Assembly: GCA_038087875.1 (NCBI GenBank)
Contig: CM075989.1
Location: 11,782,001 to 11,842,000, forward strand
Reading direction: 5' to 3'
DNA: 60,000 nucleotides
Source: Malacoraja senta
Taxonomy: Eukaryota
A program made the translations under genes and the position numbers. Positions 2,220 through 58,119 of this stretch are shown in pieces. The notes under the pieces were generated by a model. The model was not told the DNA's origin. It did no database searches and worked only from the letters and a program-made list of their open reading frames with translations. Positions within the stretch are counted from its first letter, which is position 1; the number at the start of each line of letters is the position of its first letter.

Positions 2220-4545
2220 GGCTTATTATTGCCCCATGTAACGAGGTACAGTGAAATGCTCTGTTTTGCATGCTGTCCAATCAGATAGTACAATCATGTC
2301 AAACTCAAGTACAATAGGTAGAGGGAAGGGGAAGACAGAGTTCTCAGCACTGTAGCACATCAGTTCCAGAGACAAAGTCCAATGTCCACAATGGGGTAGA
2401 TGTGAATCGGACTGTACCCTAGCTAATAGAAAGACCTTTTAGAAGCCTGATAACAAAGGGAAACAAGTTATTCCTGAGTCCGGTGGTGTGCACTTTCAAG
2501 CTTCTGTACCTTCAGCCACACGGGAGCAGGGAGAATGACGAATGACCCAGAGCGTGACAAACCCTTGATTATGTTGCCTGCTTTTCCGGGACAGCGTGAA
2601 GCGTAGATGGAGTCAATAGTGGAAAGTCTGTGTGGTGGAGTGGGTTACATCTACAACTGTAATTTCTCATGCTCTTTGGCAGATTTATTCCCAAATACAA
2701 ATTGTGATGCAACCTTACGGTTTGCTTCGTACATTTTATCTGTATAAGTTTGTAAGACTCATTGGAGACATGCCAAACTTCCTGTCTACCAAGGAAGTAT
2801 AGGCATTGGTGTGCCTTCTTGGCTGTCACATTAATGTGGCTCAGCCCCACTTGCCCACGAGGACCAATATACAGTGGCTAGCAAAAGTATTCATACCCCT
2901 TGAACTTTTCCACATTTTGTCACGTTACAACCACAAACGTAAATGTATTTTATTGGGATTTTATGTGATAGACCAACACAAAGTGGCGCATAATTGTGAA
3001 GTGGAAGGAAAATGATACATGGTTTTCAAATTTTTTTACAAATAAAAAACTGAAAAGTGTGGCGTGCAAAAGTATTCAGCCCCCTTTACTCTGATACCCC
3101 TAAATAAAATCCAGTGCAACCAATTGCCTTCAGAAGTCACCTAATTAGTAAATAGAGTCCACTTGTGTGTAATCTAATCTCAGTATAAATCCATCATCCG
3201 AAAATGGAAAGAGTATGGCACAACTGCAAACCTACCAAGACATGGCCGTCCACCTAAACTGACAGGTGGAGCATTGATCAGAGAAGCAGCCAAGAGGCCC
3301 ATGGTAACTCTGGAGGAGCTGCAGAGATCCACAGCTCAGGTGGGAGAATCTGTCCACAGGACAACTATTAGTCGTGCACTCCACAAATCGGGCCTTTATG
3401 GAAGAGTGGCAAGAAGAAAGCCATTGTTGAAAAAAAGCCATAAGAAGTCACGTTTGCAGTTTGCCACAAGCCATGTGGGGGACACAGTAAACATGTGGAG
3501 GAAGATGCTCTGGTCAGATGAGACCAAAATTGAAGTTTTTGGCCTAAATGCAAAACGCTATGTGTGGCGGAAAACTAACACTGCACATCACCCTGAACAC
3601 ACCATCCCCACTGTGAAACATGGTGGTGGCAGCATCATGCTGTGGGGATGCTTTTCTTCAGCAGGAACAGGGAAGCTGGTCAGAGTTGATGGGAAGATGG
3701 ATGGAGCCAAATACAGGGCAATCTTGGAAGAAAACCTGTTGGAGTCTGCAAAAGACTTGAGACTGGGGCGGAGGTTCACCTTCCAGCAGGACAACGACCC
3801 TAAACATACAGCCAGAGCTACAATGGAATGGTTTAGATCAAAGCATATTCATGTGTTAGAATGGCCCAGTCAAAGTCCAGACCTAAATCCAATTGATAAT
3901 CTCTGGCAAGACTTGAAAATTGCTGTTCACAGACGCTCTCCATCCAATCTGACTGAGCTTGAGCTATTTTGCAAAGAAGAATGGGCAAAAATTTCCGTCT
4001 CTAGATGTGCAAAGCTGGTACAGACATACCCCAAAAGACTTGCAGCTGTAATTGCAGTGAAAGGTGGTTCTACAAAGTATTGACTCAGGGGGGCTGAATA
4101 CTTTTGCACACCACACTTTTCAGTTTTTTATTTGTAAAAAAAATTTGAAAACCATGTATCATTTTCCTTCCACTTCACAATTATGCACCACTTTGTGTTG
4201 GTCTATCACATAAAATCCCAATAAAATACATTTACGTTTGTGGTTGTAACGTGACAAAATGTGGAAAAGTTCAAGGGGTATGAAAACTTTTGCAAGCCAC
4301 TGTATGTCCCATCTACATTAGTCCCACCTGCATGCATTTGGTCCATATCCCTCCCTGACCAATCCTTGGTGCTATCAACACCACAGAACTTGAAACTTGC
4401 AACCATTTTGGCACCTTGTATGATGCTGATCGGGGTAGGTAATCCACCAGGCTTCCTGAAGTCAATAACTAACTCCTTCATCTTACTGACATTGAGGGAG
4501 GTTGTTGTCCATCATGTTATTAAGTTCTCTATCTCCTTCCTGTAG
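2220..4545 (-). mobile_element. Decayed Rex1/Babar-like LINE (2220-2845 and 4345-4545), interrupted by a CR1/SINE tail that contains the Tc1
   Basis: Peptide remnants KELVIDFRK, VASFKF.GV, AKKAHQ.LYFL. Confidence 0.7.
2872..4302 (+). mobile_element. Tc1-family transposon with ~210-bp TIRs and an internal deletion of the transposase 5' end
   Basis: TA TSD at 2870-2871 and 4303-4304; TIR CAGTGGCT(A/T)GCAAAAGT; transposase ORF 3274-4083 with [14 protein letters not shown] and SPDLNPI. Confidence 0.96.
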
Positions 4546-9004: not shown

Positions 9005-12000
9005 TCCACATTTTTATTGTTGGCGTAGGAGCATTTTTCCAAAATTTCAGTATCAGTTTTTTTGCCGTTATTAAGCCATAACTAAGAAAACTCCTTTGAA
9101 ACGCAGTCAGCTCCAAACTTGCTTCTATTGTTCCAAAAATAATCAATTCTGCATTCGGTTTCAGTTTTATTTTAAATAATTTAGTGAAAATTTCAAAAAT
9201 TTAATTCCAAAATTTTTGGATTTTTATACAAAATACAAAAGAATGTGCTATAGTTGATTCTTGGACTAGGTATTTATCACAGTTAGCAGAGGTATAATCT
9301 ATGTAAAATTTTAAATTGAATCAATGTCTTACGTTAATCGGACATTTATGCACATATAATAGATGTTTATCCCAGCTCTCTTTCGAGATTTTTATAGCTA
9401 GTTCCTGTTCCCATTCTCTTCTAATCCCATCCGATGATGGAATTTCTATATTTAAAATGGAATTATATAGGTATGATATTAAATTAGCTGATTCCGCTTT
9501 TATATTCATTATCCCATCTAATAGGTCAGGAGACATATTTTGATATTCTCGTGTATACTTTTTCAAATAGTCACGTAGTTGAAAATATTTGAAATATTGA
9601 TTACTATTCAAGTTGTATTTAAGTTGTAATTGGTGAAATGTTAAAAAACTTCCATTATCATACATATCTCCAAACGTTTTAATTCCTACTCTTTCCCAAT
9701 TTATAAAAGCTCTATCTATCATAGAAGGTTTAAATGAAGGGTTATTCATTATAGGTGAAAGAAGTGATAGATTTCTTAATTTTAACGTTAATTTTATTTG
9801 TTTCCAAATTCTAATTGTACTATGAATAATTGGATTTTTACTATATATTGTATTCTTCATTTTTGTTGGTGAGAGAAGGATCGCTCCTATGTTAAAAGGG
9901 GAACAGTCCTCTCTCTCCATTACTATCCAATCCACCTGCTGGGCCGAATTGTCCAACAGGTGAATCATATTTTTGACATTTGTGGCCCAATAATAATATA
10001 AAAAATTGGGGAGTGATAATCCACCAAATTCCTTAGGTTTACACAAATGGATTCTGTGGGATTTATAGTCCCATATAAAATTTGTAATATCAGCATCCAA
10101 TTTTGCAAAAAATTTGGGGGGTAAGTATATCGGTATTGACTGGAATAGATATAAAATTTGTGGTAAAAAAGATAATTTTTATAGCATTTATTTGGCCTAT
10201 AAGAGACATCGGGAGGGTTTTCCAGAATTTAATCAGTGTGTTTAGTTTATTGAGTAAGGGCATATAGTTTGCATTAAATAGAGATTTATATTTTCTAGTA
10301 ATTTCAATTCCCAAATATTTAAATTTTTCTGAAGCGATTTTAAAAGGGAATTTTAACAGGTGTGTCGATTCTTGAGGTTTAATCGTCATAATATCACTTT
10401 TATTTCAATTTATTCTATATCCTGAAAAGGATCCAAATTCCTCAATTAAATTTAATATATTTGGTATACTAGTTTGTGATTTTGTAATATATAGTAGTAC
10501 ATCATCTGCATATAAAGATATCTTATTATTTGAATATTTTGTATTGTACCCATGAATATTCGGATGTATCCTAATACTTTCCGCTAACGGTTCTATTACA
10601 AGAGCAAATAGCAGAGGTGATAATGAACACCCCTGTCTATTTCCCCTTGATAACTGAAATTTCGAGGACAAAATATTATTAGTTAATATTCTGGCCGTAG
10701 GCCTATCATATAATAATTTTACCCAAGCGATAAAATTCTCTCCCACTTGAAATTTTTGCAATACTTTAACCATATAATCCCATTCCACTTGATCAAATGC
10801 TTTTTCTGCGTCCAGTGAAATAATTGATAAGTCTTGCTCTTCGGTTTTATGTGAGTGCATTATATTAAACAGACGTCTCAGGTTATTGCTTGAGTATCTC
10901 TTGGGTATAAACCCTGTTTGATCCGGATTTATTAATTTACTAACATAGTTACTTAGCCTTCTAGCTAATGTTTTCGCTAATATTTTTTTATCTGTATTTA
11001 ACAGCGCAATAGCTCTATAAGAACCCGGATCTTCTGAATCTTTACCTTTTTTAGGTATAAGTGTAATCGTTGACTCCGCCAATGTTTCTGGAAGTGTATG
11101 TTTTTTAAAAGCATATGTATAAATTTTATGTAGTCGTGGTGTAATTATCTCGTAAAATCTTTTATAAAATTCATTACTAAAACCATCTGGTCCTGGAGTT
11201 TTTCCATTCTTTAATGTATTTATTGTTTCTTCTATTTCCTTAGTTGAGACTTGTGCACCTAATTCCTCTTGTTCACTCACATTGAGTTTTGGGAGATTAC
11301 AATTATCCAGGAACTCTCTAACTTTGGTACTATCTGCTACCGCTTTAGATGTATATAAATTTTGATAAAATTGAGCAAATCTTTTATTAATATCCTTAGG
11401 TAGTGTTAACAATTCCCCTTTATCTGATTTAATCTTTAAAATCGTGTGGTCCTTTTCCCGTTTTTTCAGTTGTCGAGCCAGAAGCTTGTGTGGTTTATCC
11501 CCAAATTCAAAATTTTCCTGTTTTGTGATTTGAAATAATCTAATAACATTTGCTGATAATATTTTGTATAATTTAAATTTCATTATTGTTATTTTATTAT
11601 GTGTCTATAGTAGGCTCTTTAGCATTATCTAATTCCAATTCTCTAATTCGTTCTTCTAACTGCCTTTGTTCTTTCTTATTCCTTTTATTTAAAAAAGCTT
11701 GGTATGAGATTATAGATCCTCCAATAACTGCTTTGAATGATTCCCATAGTAGAACTGGTGAGGTATCTGGGATGTCATTATTCTTTAAAAAAAGTTCCAT
11801 CTGTTGTTTTAAATATATTTCCCCTCGTGGGTCATTTAAGATTTGAGGATTAAACCTCCAAAACGATATATTAGAAGGCATTCCTTCTAATTTAAAAAAA
11901 AAAGTTAACGGGGAGTGATCAGAAATTATACTATTGTGATATTTTGGATTCATTGTATAGTGAATTCGTTTTGTATCCACTAAGAAATAGTCGATACGTG

Positions 12001-14761
12001 AATAAGTTTTGTGTACCATTGAATAAAACGAGTATTCCCTTCCGACAGGGTTAGCGATCCTCCAAACATCTGTTATATTTGTATTTTTTATGTAAGTATT
12101 TAAGATTTCCCTGGTTTTAGATTTTGTGTTGCCCCTACTCTGTTGTGAAGATTTATCCAAATATGGATCTAAAACAGTTAAAATCTCCCCCAATTATCAC
12201 ATTTTGATAATTGAACTCTGTAATTATATTCAGAATTTTATTTAAAAATTGAGGATTATCAAAATTAGGCGCATAAATATTTACCAAGGTAATTGGGGTA
12301 GCATGAATCTCTCCGGTAACTATAAGGTATCTCCCTTCCTTATCTGTCATGATATTCTTCGATTTAAATGGTATACCTTTTCGAATAATGATTGCTGTGC
12401 CTCTAGCTTTGGAAATATATGAAGAATGGTATGTTTGGCCTATCCAGTTTGCCTTCAATCTGGCTTGAGCTTGCAGTTTCAAGTGAGTTTCATGTAGGAA
12501 TATTATGTCCGTATTGAGTGACTTCAATTGTGCAAAAATCTTACCCCTTTTAATTGGTTCATTAGCACCCCTAATATTCCAACTGCAGAATGTGATTCCT
12601 CCAAATTTCTTTTATTTATCGTCTTGCATTTTGAATTATTTAATACCTTTTAAACATGTGGTGAAAGCAATACCTTAGGTCTCTGGCTGTTGGGCGAGCA
12701 TTTGCAATATTAAATTCAGTTATTACATCCCTCTCAAAATTGTCCTTAAGTAAAGAAACAAAAAAGTGTACATTATTGTGACATTTAAAAAAAATCAAAA
12801 AAGTGAGGTTACAGTGTCTAAAAATGACGACACTGTGACCAATTATCCACCTAATGGTGGTAGTTACACAATTAATGACTTCCATAGTTGTTAATCTACA
12901 TTTAGCTCCGTCCCCTTGAATAATCTTACAAAAGGGAGTTGGGACCCATTCAAAGCCAAATTTTATGTGTCAGCCTTACCGTATCTACCATATCTTTATA
13001 TCTAAATAAATCTTCTCTAATCTCCAAACCTATCTACCATTTACTTATGTTAACAATTATTACATTTTCTTCCCCTTCCATACTAATCTGCCTTTGGTTG
13101 GAAGGGGTTAACCCGATTCAGTCACCTGGCTATTTGCCAAGATTCTGAATCTCCACACCTCCTTCCACACAAAATTTGAACTACAGCTTATCATAATTTC
13201 TAAATTAATTTGTTAGTCTGTTGTAAATCTATTTACTTATATTTAGCCCCCCTCCTCCCCTACCCCGGGGGGGGGGGGGTGGGGTCAATCCTTATAATGA
13301 ATTATTACATTTTATCAATTAAGCAATTCAATTTTAAATTAATTACTATTACTGTTAGTGTGTTAATTTCAATAACTTTAATTACTATTACTATATTAGT
13401 TCAGTAGTTTTTGTGTTAGTATGGAATTAGTGTAGGGATAAAATTTTAAGTCTTTCATTCAGGATTTTTTTTCCCATCCATCTTCGTTAGGTTGCTCATT
13501 CAGCCATGCCCTTGTTATTCCATCTTTCGCTCATGTTGGAGCCAAATTTGTCCTTGAGATAAGAGAGTCTAGACAGCCGCACATGGAGAAGCTGCGCCAT
13601 CTTAATCCTTTTAAAAAACATTTTAAAAGTTATTTCTATCGACCTTCCCTCAGCCGTTGTCTGTAGAATAAAAACCTTGTCTTGAGGATGTGATGTTTTA
13701 CTTAAGCCTCTATTTCTTTTACGATGTCTTGAGCATATTTATAAGCAGCTTCTGGATCACTAAATTTGCGTTCAGTACCATTATAAGTAATGATCATCTT
13801 AGCTGGATAAATTATTCCATATCTGTTGTGTATTTTTAAACGCTTCTCGTTTTTTTTATAGCAATTTCATAAGGATAGTCTCTAAAAAGTCTGATGGTGT
13901 CCGTCCAAAACTTCCATATTGAATTTTTCTCATGGCCTCTTCCAAAGCTGAAATGTCCCGAAATTTCACAATGATCTGTCGTGGGGGAGCTCCTTTTGTT
14001 TGTGTCCTTGATTTTAGCCGTTTCACTTCTATTTTCGGTTTAGCTGGCAGGTTGAGTATATTTTTAAGTAAGTTGGCAGTGTACTCTCGGGGATTATTCC
14101 CCTCCTCTCCTTCTTTCACTCCAACTATTCTTAAATTCTGCCGTCTTGACCTTGCTTCCAAATCAAGGCATTTATCCTTATCAATTTTCAAAGATAATTC
14201 ACCATGAACATCATCTATTCGTTTATTTATATTACCGATTGAATCAATTACTTTCTGATTCCCAGTGTTCATGTTCTTCATCATGCTCTCCATCATACTT
14301 TTATTACATGCCAAAAGTTCATTTTGTAAGTCACTCACCGATGTCTTAATTTCCTCCATCTCTTTGTCAGAACTTTTTCAGCCATTTCAGCCTTTGATCT
14401 TGTAGTCATTTTCAGGGCTAGTTCAGCAGTTACCTCTTCAAGTTCTTGAAGTTCAGCAGTTACTTCTTCAGGTTCTTGAATTTTTTCAGGTGGTGAGTTT
14501 TTTCAGAAGTTGCTTGGAGACAGATCTCTGAGGGCTCTGACAGGGAGTCGTTCTTTTCATTTAAAAATAGCTTAAACCTCCGTTATTTTCGCGGCGATTT
14601 CTGATGACGTCATCAGCACCGCGACAAGCAGCTCCGGTAAGTTTTTACACAAGGTCCCGACTTCCAAATCAATTTTTAAAGCGAAAATTCGCCGATTACG
14701 GGCACGGAGCTAAATGCTACGCCTGTTCAGTCCAACATGGCGCCACCGGAAGTCTCATAAT

Positions 14762-15587
14762 AGGGAGGTTTCACGGCAGTCGGGTCACGACCCCATGACC
14801 CGTACTGTTGCTACGCTACGCCAAATGGAATACACGCGATGAACTGCAGGCAAGCACTTACCATTGTTTCCAGCTTAGCGGGCCCGTTAAAACCCGCCGA
14901 AATGGTCAATTTTTGCGCTGTAAATAATTATGGAAATCAGGATAAGCGTGAGAGACATTTAGACAACTTCTGCTGAAAGGAACAACAACAGCCAGAGTGC
15001 TTGGCGAACATTGACCGTTTGCTCACTGCATTTCATCAACTGGCATTATTTGTGTTTTTTCTTGATTCCTTTGGCATCTAAAAAGTTTCAGAAGGGAATC
15101 TGGTTCTCGTGGGTTTTTACATACAAAAATAAAACGCCTCTGAAGCAAATTTTACAACCAGATTTACCACTTCTGAGACTTTTTAGATACCAAAGAAATA
15201 AAAAAACAAAACAAATAATGCCTTACCGTTAATGAAATGCAGTGAACAAACGCGATAAATCCCGATATTATCAATTCCGATATCTGCACGGCCAATGTTC
15301 GCCAAGCACTTTAGCTGTTGTTGTCCCTTCAGCTCTCGCTTCTCTTTACCTTCATTTCACTTCACTTTTGGAATTCTGAAGTTGGGTACATGTCTCTCAC
15401 ACTTACCCCGACTTCCACAATTTTTTACAGCGTAAGAATTCAACATTTTGGCAGTTTTTAACAGGTAGGAAAGTACGCGTTTCTTGTATTAATAACATAT
15501 ACCGGAAGTGACGGATGTCTTCCAGATGGATTGAGCGGCTCCGTGCGTCAAGCCCTATGACCCGGTGACCTTACGTGCAACCCCCCT
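14762..15587. mobile_element. Non-autonomous ISL2EU-like DNA transposon with THAP remnants, copy 1
   Basis: AT TSD; TIRs agggaggtttcacg / cgtgcaacccccct; two inverted THAP-like arms. Confidence 0.75.
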
Positions 15588-15877
15588 ATACAACTGTTAA
15601 AACTGAAACCCTAGCTTTGTATTCATGGAATGCAAAAAATCAGCTGGAAAGATCCATTTTGTGACCTTTGAAACTTAACTTGTGGCAACACACTTGATTG
15701 ACACATTGAGAGTACATGAAATGAGCTACTAGAGCTAGAAGTGGACCATAAAACAATGTCCAAAAAATATTCTTGTTCTTCACAATATACTCTGCAGCCC
15801 AGGATCCCTTTATTTTGTAGTTTGTTACTTTACGATTCTGTGCATAATTAATGTACAATTTGAACCCAATAAATATG

Positions 15878-53829: not shown

Positions 53830-53927
53830 CCTTGTTTGCTCTTCCCCAGTGAAAGTTTATTTTGGACTCCTTTCTCCGAGTGAAGCTCCAGCTGTTTCTG
53901 GAGGTTGTTCTGTGGTAAGCAAGTCAT
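53830..53927 (-). CDS. BLM: BLM exon 2, start codon (MTCLPQNNLQKQLELHS)
   Basis: ctgcag|A-ATG, donor gtaag; PQNNL..QLE.HS is the conserved BLM N-terminus. Confidence 0.95.
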
Positions 53928-54608
53928 TCTGCAGAACAAATCAAATCAAATAAGAATAATTTGTGATCACATTTTTAGAGTTTGGCTTATTTTACACTTT
54001 GGTAATCACATCCAGGTGTTTGCCAAAAGTTGCTAGCCGAGGATTTGTATCACAAAGCAGCAATTTGATCCAAGCAACTGAACTCCCATCTGGTTTTCTA
54101 CCATTTTCCAAGCACTGTACTCTCTAAATTAAAAAAATTGCACAATGTTCAATTCCATTTGCAACTCAGGCAGCATCTTCAAGGGAAATGGACAGATGAC
54201 AGTTGGAGTCAGGACCTTTCCTCAACCTGATGGAGTAGACGAGAGATAACTGATAGAATGAGGCGAGAGGCACGAGCGGGGAAAGAGTTAGCAAGTAATA
54301 GGTGGATTTACAGATGAGTGAGATGGGGGGGAAAAAAGTGTGGAGATCGTAACCAAGGCTAGGGGTAATATGTGGGGAAGACAAACGGGTGAAATCTGAT
54401 AAGGAAGGAAGGGAGTAAAATATAATCCAAAGGGAGGGATATTCGGTAGAAGAAGTTTAGATACTGACTGGGCATGAACCACAACACCTGGAAATGGAGC
54501 TGGAAAGCCTTGTGGAATAAGATGCCAGCAAAGAACTGCGGAAGGAGCAAGTCTAGGTAAGAACATGGTCAAGGAGCAGGAGAACAGTAGGAATCACAGA
54601 GAGGAAGC

Positions 54609-55735
54609 AGTTCCGGAAGTGGCGGCGCTGTTAATCGGCTGCGGCTCGCCTGCAGTCCGTCTGTTTTTACTTTTTCTGTTGGTTTTTTTTTTGTCCTGTT
54701 TTGTTAAGTTTTAGTTTGTTGGGTTGTGTTAGGGGGGGAGAAACATGTCCTCTGTCTCCTCCTTCGGGGGAATGCGACTTTTTTGTGTCGTATCCCCCTT
54801 CCCTGCCTCCATCTGCGGTGAGGCCTAATGGCGGAGCTGGCCGCCTCCATCCTGCGACCGACCCCGAGGCTACGGAGGCAGAGCCAGCCAGGACTTACCA
54901 ACGAGATGCTGGCCGTCTTCGGGGCTGAGGCAGCGGTGGCCCGACTTGCTGGTGCGGCGTTCTGGCTTTCGGCGGCAGCCTGGAGCTGATGCAGCGGGGT
55001 CCGGAGCGGAGACTGCGGGACCTGGAGCTGATACAGCGGGGTCCGGAGCGGAGACTGCGGGACCTGGAGCTGATACAGCGGGGTCCGGAGCGGAGACTGC
55101 GGGACCTGGAGCTGGTGCGGCGGGGTCCGGAGCGGAGACTGCGGGACCTGGAGCTGATACGGCGGGGTCCGGAGCGGAGACTGCGGGACCTGGAGCTGGT
55201 GCGGCGGGGTCCGGAGCAGAGACTGCGGGACCTGGAGCTGATACAGCGGGGTCCGGAGCGGAGACTGCGGGACCTGGAGCTGGTGCGGCGGGGTCCGGAG
55301 CGGAGACTGCGGGACCTGGAGCTGATACGGCGGGGTCCAGAGCGGAGACTGCGGGACCTGGAGCTGGTGCGGCGGGGTCCGGAGCGGAGACTGCGGGACC
55401 TGGAGCTGAAGCTGTGGCGGGCCGTCTCGGAGCGGAGACGGCGTTCCGGCTTTCGGCGGCGGCGACATCATCACGGAGGTCCGCTGGACTGGAGGGCGGC
55501 ATCTTCGGCCTGGATCGATCGCCTCAGCGCAGAGGGAGAACAAGGAGGAAGAGACGGAGACTAAGACTTTGCCTCCATCACAGTGAGGGTGTGCTTGGTG
55601 AACTCACTGTGGTGGATGTTTAATTTGTGTTTATTGTATGTTTTGTTATTATTGGTTCTGTGTATGACTGCAGGCATCACAATTTCGTTCAGACCGAAAG
55701 GTCTGAATGACAATAAAGGAAACTTGACTTGATTC
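54609..55735 (+). mobile_element. Non-autonomous retroelement carrying the 42-bp minisatellite; related 3' part at ~44900-45190 (-)
   Basis: 5' ttccggaagtggcggcg; 3' caataaagg..(cttga)n; shared gcctccatcacagtgagg motif. Confidence 0.55.
54979..55409. repeat. 42-bp GC-rich minisatellite, 10 full copies plus a partial copy
   Basis: Unit cctggagctgRtRcRgcggggtccggagcggagactgcggga starting at 54979, 55021 ... 55357. Confidence 0.97.
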
Positions 55736-56586
55736 TTGAGTTAGAGAGAGTCTCACAGAACTCCAATCAAACTGTACATGATGAGTTTAATCGCCACCAA
55801 GTCAGAATTCTATAGCTTTTGATTTGAACAGATAATCTGAATGTCACAAAAAGCTGGAGGAACTCAGCGGGTCAGAGGGCATCTCTGGAGAAAAGGAATA
55901 GTTGACGTTTCGAGTCGAGAACGTTCTTCAGACCCAAAACATCACCTATTCCTTTTCTCCAGAAATTCCGTCTGACCTGCTGAGTTACTCCAGCTTTTTG
56001 TGTCTATCTTCGGTTTAAACCAGCATCTGCAGTTCCTTACTACACATTTAGTCTGAATGTCATTTCTCTGCAGCTACATGCAGATTTAGATTTCAAGGCT
56101 TATTTCAATTATTAAATCACATAATACAGGACGAGACATGCAGTAGTGAGGAATCCATGCTCAGAGTCAGAGAGTGGTTTGTGAGGACTGGTTGCAGCCG
56201 TTTGCCGCAGAAGAGCGAACTGACCAGCTAATAAATGCTCTTTTTTAAAATAATAATACAAAGTGTAGTTACCCTCATTTATTCCTCACAGGCCCTGCAG
56301 AGACCAGGGGCCCGAGCTTGCTGTGTGCGAAGAAACAGCAGATGCTGGTTTCCACCGAAGATAATCACAAAAAGCTGGAGTAACTCCGCGGGACAGGCAG
56401 CATCTCTGGAGAGAAGGAATCGGATCGAGACCCGTCTTCAGGCTGAAGAAGGGTCTCGACCAGAAAGGCCACCCATTCATTCTCTCCAGAGATGCTGCCT
56501 GACCCGCTGAGTTAGTTACTCCAGCTTTTTGTGTGCTTGCTGTTTGCTTACCCGCCCGCTGCTGTCCGCAAGAATTAAAAACTTAC

Positions 56587-56990
56587 CTCCACACCGCATC
56601 TCAGCTGAACCTGCAGAAGCTGCTACGCCTGCAAACCGTCCCAAGTAATCGATAGCCCGGTGCTCCCCGCTAGGCCCGGTACTCCCCGCTAGGCCCGGTG
56701 CTCCCCGCTAGGCCCGGTGCTCCCCGCTAGGCCCGGTGCTCCCCGCTAGGCCCGGTGCTCCCCGCTAGGCCCGGTACTCCCCGCTAGGCCCGGTACTCCC
56801 CGCTAGGCCCGGTACTCCCCGCTAGGCCCGGTACTCCCCGCTAGGCCCGGTACTCCCCGCTAGGCCCGGTACTCCCCGCTAGGCCCGGTACTCCCCGCTA
56901 GGCCCGGTACTCCCCGCTAGGCCCGGTGCCAGCGACCTCTCTCCAGCGATCAAATTCCCGCGCCCGCTCCTCCGCCGTGTCCAGGAAGTG
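56587..56990 (-). other. BLM: Putative BLM non-coding exon 1 (5'UTR)
   Basis: CpG island ending at GAG|gtaagt (56586); alternative donor CGG|gtaagc at 56551; start approximate. Confidence 0.6.
56653..56928. repeat. 19-bp GC-rich minisatellite (taggcccggtRctccccgc), about 14.5 copies
   Basis: Exact period of 19 from 56671 to 56917; one A/G variant position. Confidence 0.97.
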
Positions 56991-56992
56991 CG
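56948..56992 (-). promoter_or_regulatory. BLM core promoter: E2F site GGCGCGGGAA with adjacent CHR-like TTTGAT, plus an ETS motif
   Basis: Minus strand ggcgcgggaatttgatc (56964-56948); caggaagtg at 56982-56990. Confidence 0.6.
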
Positions 56993-57117
56993 TCGGAGCG
57001 CTCTCACTCTCTCTCGCCCCCCAGCGGGCAGAATAAAGAACGGAAAAAGACCACCAAAGGTTAAACCAAGGGTTAAACAATCTCAAGGGGGACATTTTCC
57101 ACACAGAAGGTCGGTAT

Positions 57118-57151: not shown

Positions 57152-57159
57152 GTCGGTAT

Positions 57160-58049
57160 AGGGAGGTTTCACGGCAGTCGGGTCACGACCCATGACCTGT
57201 ACTGTTGCTACGCTACTCCAAATGGAGTACACGCGATGAACTGCAGGTAAGCACTCACCATTGTTTCCAGTTTAGCGGGCCCGTTAAAACCCGCCGAAAT
57301 TGTTAATTGTTGCGCTGTAAATATTTATGGGAATCGGGATAAGCGTGAGAGACATTTAGCCTACTTCAGAATTCCAAAAGTGAGGAGAAATGTCGGTAGA
57401 TAGAAGCGAGAGCTGTAGGGACAACAGCCAGAGTGCTTGGCGAACATTGGCCGTTTGCTCACTGCATTTCATCAACTAAGGCATTATTTGTGTTTTTTCT
57501 TGATTCCTTTGGCATCTAAAAAGTTTCAGAAGGGATAAATGTGGCTGTAAAATTTTAAAATCGCCCATGGTTCTCAAGTGGGTTTTTACATACAAAAAGA
57601 AAACGCCTCTGAAGCAAAATTTACAGCCAGATTTATCACTTCTGAGACTTTTTAGATACCAAAGGAATCAAGAAAAACCACAAATAATGCCTTACTGTTG
57701 ATGAAATGCAGTGAGCAAACGCGATTATTCCCAATATTTTCAATTCCGATAGCTGCATTGCCAATGTTCGCCAAGCACTTTAGCTGTTGTTGTCCCTTCA
57801 GCTCTTGCTTCTCTTTACCTTCATTTCGCTTCACTTTTGGAATTCTGAAGTTGGGTACATGTTTCTCACACTTACCCCGACTTCCACAATTATTTACAGC
57901 GCAAAAATTCAACATTTTGGCAGTTTTTAACAGGTAGGAAAGTACGCGTTTCTTGCATTAATAACATATACCGGAAGTTACGGATGTCCTCCAGATGGAT
58001 TGAGCAGCTCCGTTCGTCAAGCCCTGTGACCTTTACGTGCACACCCCCT
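57160..58049. mobile_element. Non-autonomous ISL2EU-like DNA transposon, copy 2
   Basis: Same termini and internal sequence as 14762-15587; AT on the left, GT (mutated) on the right. Confidence 0.75.
57696..57915 (-). pseudogene. THAP zinc-finger exon of the ISL2EU-like element
   Basis: MLNFCAVNNC...FRIPK...RVCSLHF, then donor gtaagg; the conserved THAP Trp position reads Cys. Confidence 0.7.
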
Positions 58050-58119
58050 GTATGGAGCAAGCTGCCAGAGGAGGTAGATGAGGCAGGTACTATAACAACG
58101 GATATTTGAACGGGTAGAT

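Follow-up and report, generated by a model that had tools for sequence, protein, structure and literature searches.

The window analysed here, a stretch of 60,000 nucleotides from Malacoraja senta, holds a G-rich minisatellite in the presumed 5'UTR of a gene that a first-pass annotation named as BLM. The locus raises the question whether this array is a length-variable element through which a G-quadruplex (G4)-unwinding helicase senses its own activity, as that annotation proposed, or a repeat that has grown there with little consequence. The earlier interpretation as a whole is partly supported by the evidence below, and the reading that we favour, and hold to be probable, is a young, lineage-labile GC-rich minisatellite in exon 1 and the CpG island of skate BLM that is close to neutral. 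We infer its near-neutrality, the mechanism of its expansion and its structure in vivo; perhaps it acts as a mild tuner of expression.

The gene is skate BLM, as had been proposed. Six of its eight minus-strand pieces match Pfam families of BLM (BLM_N, BDHCT_assoc, RecQ_Zn_bind and RQC), with two pieces lacking a match and HRDC falling below its cut-off, and among named homologues exon 3 comes closest to BLM of a skate, Rhinoraja longicauda (85%). The features on which the argument turns all lie on the minus strand, which is the sense strand of BLM, and are listed in ascending order (X4 and X21 are runs from relatives):

53830..53928, minus strand: BLM exon 2, with the start codon at 53927; matches Pfam BLM_N profile positions 1-31 (E 3e-12), and the same Met starts 11 of 12 homologues
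56581..56586, minus strand: splice donor of intron 1, GTAAGT (AG/GTAAGT at 56587/56586), used in X21
56587..56652, minus strand: unique 3' part of non-coding exon 1, in a contig spliced to exon 2 in X21
56597..56599, minus strand: the leader's one upstream ATG, which in the spliced transcript begins a 5-codon uORF, MRCGE (56599-56587 plus 53928-53924), whose TGA overlaps the BLM start codon
56653..56917, minus strand: minisatellite body of 14 units (TRF and unit reading)
56918..56928, minus strand: half-unit leader, forming with the end of the last unit a short direct repeat, CACCGGGC, that bounds the putative ancestral single unit; the single-unit state is found in X4
56946..56964, minus strand: E2F-type site with its GCGGGAA core at 56961, then a CHR-like TTTGAT; the GCGCG-TTTGAT spacing is 4 nt
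56981..57020, minus strand: motifs at 56989 and 57020, presumably ETS-type and a GC box respectively, candidates for a TATA-less promoter

The array thus sits where it had been placed, between the E2F motif, which starts at 56964, and the donor at 56586. The E2F, ETS and GC-box motifs are all upstream of it, and unique promoter sequence ends near 57079. E2F/CLE or CDE/CHR elements follow a 4-nt spacer rule (PMC5729532, available in part), and in human BLM the site bound by DREAM is GCGGGAA (PMC12000331, likewise in part). A coding role for the repeat was considered and rejected: every reading frame of the array contains stops, the array has no ATG, and an in-frame stop stands 7 codons before the BLM Met. 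At that Met, the annotated BLM of Narcine bancroftii (P0005) is alone among the 12 homologues in carrying 14 residues before the shared residue, which reflect either an upstream in-frame start or a choice of annotation.

The surroundings are rich in repeats. An interspersed element at 57158-58052, with a long internal inverted repeat (57280-57934) and 85% likeness to 14760-15590, caps the BLM promoter and leaves a unique part of only ~150 bp upstream of the array. A palindromic short interspersed repeat occurs twice just inside intron 1 (55845-56046 and 56322-56537) and many more times across the window. The window also contains a 301-codon open frame at 3178-4080 on the plus strand, which we take to be a Tc1/mariner transposase from its appearance, and, at ~9300-14400 on the minus strand, what is presumably a fragmented LINE with endonuclease- and reverse-transcriptase-like frames. 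A second GC-rich minisatellite occupies 54979-55409 in BLM intron 1 (42 bp x 10.3 copies, 94%); it is G-rich on the plus strand, with 44 CpG, open frames on both strands and no canonical G4 pattern, and our guess is that it belongs to the GC-rich 5' part of a mobile element. Its presence 1.2 kb from the array shows how readily such arrays arise here.

TRF places the minisatellite at 56655-56927, with a period of 19, 14.4 copies, 98% matches and 0% indels. Such head-to-tail units, longer than 7 bp and highly alike, make it a minisatellite by structure, and with a score of 511 the array itself is not due to chance. Read on the BLM sense strand, it consists of the half-unit leader followed by 14 units of 19 bp, in the order of eight T-type units, four C-type units, one T-type unit and a final C-type unit that is one base (C) short. 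The first-pass annotation had given the unit as a single sequence; the 19-bp periodicity stands, and the unit comes in two variants that differ at one site (AGTACC in nine loops, AGCACC in five). Likewise, the alternation of GGG and GGGG tracts with 6-nt loops holds, with 29 tracts (15 GGG and 14 GGGG) in place of the ~28 reported, and all 28 loops are 6 nt long and contain C or CC. The pattern G3+N1-7 runs without a break from 56924 to 56656 (269 nt), yielding seven non-overlapping canonical motifs, the number that had been estimated, and it is the longest of the five canonical matches in the window. The array adds ~250 nt of 75% GC to the leader, with 29 CpG over 56653-56928, adjoining the E2F site. 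No copy of the unit core was found elsewhere in the window, and an origin from a dispersed element, tested within the window, was rejected for want of a second core.

How surprising the G4 pattern is depends on what is counted. Because it derives from one repeated unit, it amounts to a single event and not to 29. When the letters of the unit were shuffled, 952 of 20,000 shuffles (4.8%) would also give a continuous pattern if tandemised, as would 70 of the 965 GC-rich 19-mers of the window (7%), compared with 286 of all 59,706 19-mers (0.5%). The corresponding figure for exon 1 (15 of 150) was not used as a control, these 19-mers probably being rotations of the unit itself.

To place the array relative to the transcript, contigs of four runs (four studies; three organisms, B, C and E; 24 runs listed) were compared over 56536-56692. 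Every listed run consists of contigs, which are interrupted at repeats and carry no information on where transcripts begin; none of the 24 is on record as RNA, which says nothing about expression. In X21 (organism E, guessed to be RNA), a 5460-nt contig matches 56587-56686, and its loose end at 56587 is identical in 30 of 30 letters to 53899-53928, the start of exon 2, so the donor at 56586 is used. The same contig covers two array units and eight further repeat letters before it stops. Since one contig both joins the donor to exon 2 and reaches two units into the repeat, the array has its 3' end in exon 1, and the presumed 5'UTR position is borne out for that part by splicing of this exon to the first coding one in a relative whose material is guessed to be RNA. 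A transcription start downstream of 56653, which the first-pass annotation had named as counting against its proposal, is contradicted by this contig for the species of X21. The contig may be a processed DNA copy.

Comparison among skates shows how labile the array is. Anchored unit counts are one in organism C, at least two in E, at least three in B and 14 in the window, so that arrays occur in three of four organisms and the claimed variability in length, which like the structure marks the array as a minisatellite, holds at the level of species; three short contigs confined to the repeat and lacking an anchor at the locus (X2 has one and X23 has two) were left out of these counts, and X23, in which the unique exon part is without cover, proves nothing. 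The single-unit state comes from X4 (organism C), where a single contig leads from the tail of exon 1 across one unit and the half-unit to upstream flanking sequence, with 28 of the 30 shown letters matching. Its repeated part of 28 nt is shorter than the 30-letter overlap of neighbouring contigs, and more than 31 unique letters flank it on either side, so it is not a collapsed array; with 91% of the run read, organism C may have a second allele.

In X2 (organism B), scattered changes over 56635-56654 were read by hand as a 13-nt gap shared with C plus one more unit. The segment concerned, 56634-56646 of exon 1, is present in the window and in organism E and missing in organisms B and C. Because arrays occur in both of these indel states (the window and E, as against B), either there was more than one expansion or the repeat contracted in C; this could also reflect repeated, selected expansion. 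The arrays of B and E carry their own unit variants, and both readable variant units keep G-tracts of at least three. The leader of organism C has an extra GGG, in a contig that also has two unlisted, unplaceable differences. Together with the tracts kept in B and E, this extra GGG suggests that one four-tract motif may predate the array, and the single-unit state of C may hold one such G4 motif. Within the window, the variable site falls in blocks, which points to recent homogenisation. Given a relative with a single unit, the multi-quadruplex array is not a conserved part of BLM control in skates.

Predictions of what the array RNA would fold into disagree. G4Hunter gives borderline scores of 1.19-1.25 per motif, 19 of 26 reaching the usual cut-off of 1.2, and 0.91 over the array. 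The cG/cC ratio is 3.07-3.81 with 50-nt context and exceeds the threshold of 3.05 (PMC3902908, in part) in all 26 motifs (in 21 of 26 with 15 nt); the same source holds minimum free energy and loop length to be poor predictors of RNA G4 folding. With quadruplexes allowed, ViennaRNA chose no G4 at 37 °C, where one G4 is assigned -2.0 kcal/mol and hairpins on the same 32 nt -11.9 kcal/mol, and the energy model prefers weak hairpins from 20 to 37 °C. At or below 18 °C, which is body temperature for many skates, the default model picks the G4. This cold switch depends on the enthalpy that the default model implies, -239 kcal/mol. For G4 and hairpins to draw level at 10 °C, about -192 kcal/mol would be needed, and a three-tier telomeric DNA G4 has a measured enthalpy of -59 kcal/mol (PMC5127293, in part). 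With values from -59, a DNA value borrowed for RNA, to -100 kcal/mol, hairpins win from 5 to 37 °C; at 10 °C and -59 kcal/mol they reach -18.5, against -7 to -10 for the G4. The alternative that the annotation had itself allowed, that CC-rich loops favour hairpins, is therefore what the model predicts at 20-37 °C, and at any temperature with the measured enthalpy. The hairpins show no sign of selection, since the array (ensemble energy -122 kcal/mol at 37 °C) folds worse than all 200 dinucleotide shuffles, and 140 of the 150 arrays built from shuffled units equal or surpass it. That the isolated array RNA would fold as a G4 in K+ is, in our judgement, a serious possibility, though we lean against it. 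In duplex DNA outside a transcription bubble a G4 is predicted to be unlikely, because the 32-bp duplex is worth -50 kcal/mol at 37 °C.

The near-neutral minisatellite that we favour could have arisen as follows. In the ancestral leader, a lone 19-bp unit would have been flanked on either side by a copy of a short direct repeat, and short direct repeats bounding a unit are the usual seed of slippage duplication. Misalignment of these repeats, by slippage or unequal exchange, would have duplicated the unit, and further misalignment would have expanded and homogenised the array to different lengths in different skates. The array would persist because exon 1 is non-coding, the repeat has no ATG, and the E2F site and donor were left intact. 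Its RNA would most likely be a shifting set of short hairpins, with G4s minor or dependent on conditions, and any effect would be a modest drag on scanning or elongation that does not involve BLM. In humans, 5'UTRs and CpG islands are enriched for VNTRs, and of the 1071 gene-VNTR pairs tested, 193 showed an effect on expression (bioRxiv 2020.11.03.367367, in part). On this account, the leader of a genome-stability gene shows a minisatellite at stages between one unit and 14, and skates offer a natural allelic series (1, 2+, 3+ and 14 units) in which to ask whether hairpins or long-loop G4 motifs have consequences in the 5'UTR when the cell is cold and rich in urea and TMAO.

The strongest competitor, which we still think unlikely, is a tuning VNTR of the TYMS or MXRA7 type, in which copy number would set BLM output independently of BLM itself, through RNA structure (hairpins or RNA G4s handled by general helicases), CpG or methylation load, or repeated factor sites; TYMS, the textbook example, is GC-rich and E2F-regulated. 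The material for such tuning is at hand in the ~250 nt of 75% GC and 29 CpG beside the E2F site, in the ensemble energy, in 14 GCC-N3/4-GG[GC] motifs that we take to be AP-2-like, and in the recurrence of arrays in three of four organisms. Moreover, ~18% of tested human pairs are eQTLs (bioRxiv 2020.11.03.367367, in part). However, organism C manages without an array, the structures are weaker than those of shuffles, and even the clinical associations of TYMS are inconsistent (PMC3320636, in part).

The self-sensing loop of the first-pass annotation, in which tandem G4s on the displaced non-template strand or the mRNA would be unwound by BLM, so that BLM level controls its own expression and array length sets the gain, is in our view very improbable. 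It draws on the continuous canonical pattern on the sense strand, the cG/cC ratios above threshold and the exon-1 position, and also on published work: when BLM is lost, sister exchanges become enriched in transcribed genes at canonical N1-7 motifs, to a greater degree than at N1-3 motifs (PMC5773480, in part), BLM unwinds RNA G4 (PMC10516661, in part), a 2026 preprint ties G4s to accessibility in Bloom cells (PMC13001512, in part), and TMAO stabilises a G4 (source available in part). This published work does not bear on the BLM locus itself. Against this, each quadruplex would have three C-containing loops of 6-7 nt, and instability in yeast is confined to short-loop G4 minisatellites (PMC5491262, in part); the 32-bp duplex is very stable; and one relative has a single unit. 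The exchanges occur on both strands but more on the transcribed one (PMC5773480, in part), whereas the G-rich strand of the array is the non-template. A further preprint disagrees with the one on Bloom cells, local G4s not explaining expression change in BLM-deficient cells (10.1101/2023.09.08.556664, in part). Finally, G4 pattern and helicase were paired in hindsight, and the pattern would be expected in 5-7% of comparable units.

An elaboration of the loop fares equally poorly. It starts from one ancestral G4 motif, which organism C may still retain, and has several skates multiply it independently of one another; the resulting array, stabilised by cold and TMAO, would be unwound by BLM, with feedback gain set by copy number and length guarded by BLM. 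We regard this as a long shot. Were feedback true, a G4 helicase would be controlling itself through a G4. A literature search, with subscription journals outside its coverage, returned no report of BLM self-regulation via a G4, of this skate G4 minisatellite or of the BLM uORF discussed below. Just as hard to credit is that transcription in the window's species begins mostly inside the array or at its 3' end, which would make the array, if it acts at all, a promoter VNTR and not a 5'UTR element: the X21 contig does end after two units and eight letters, and CpG-island starts are dispersed, but repeats interrupt contigs, whose ends are no guide to a start, and the array has the E2F, ETS and GC-box motifs on its upstream side.

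If translation of BLM is controlled from its leader, the uORF across the exon 1/2 junction would be a simpler candidate than the quadruplex. Both its start and that of BLM have G at -3, and no change is listed at the positions of the upstream ATG in organism B (X2).

Among known systems, the human BLM promoter, regulated through DREAM/E2F4, shares the GCGGGAA E2F core near the start (PMC12000331, in part), while the available part of that source describes no repeat array such as that in the skate. The known actions of BLM at G4 motifs, at sister-exchange hotspots and on RNA G4 in stress granules (sources available in part), supply the premise of the feedback idea, but these effects are genome-wide. 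In the G4 minisatellites CEB1 and CEB25, as in the array, the units supply the G-tracts, and helicase-dependent instability is the proposed link. The destabilising CEB forms have loops of at most 3 nt (PMC5491262, in part), unlike the array with its 6-nt loops throughout, and the BLM array differs further in needing two units per quadruplex and in its competing CC/GG pairing. The TYMS 28-bp 5'UTR VNTR (2R/3R) and the MXRA7 5'UTR and CSTB upstream VNTRs, as described in the parts of the literature available, are like the array in being tandem repeats in or beside a leader with variable copies and a proposed role in tuning expression. The BLM array stands apart from them in its 14 copies, its canonical G4 pattern and variation seen between species, and by analogy it would work most like such VNTRs of 5'UTRs and CpG islands.
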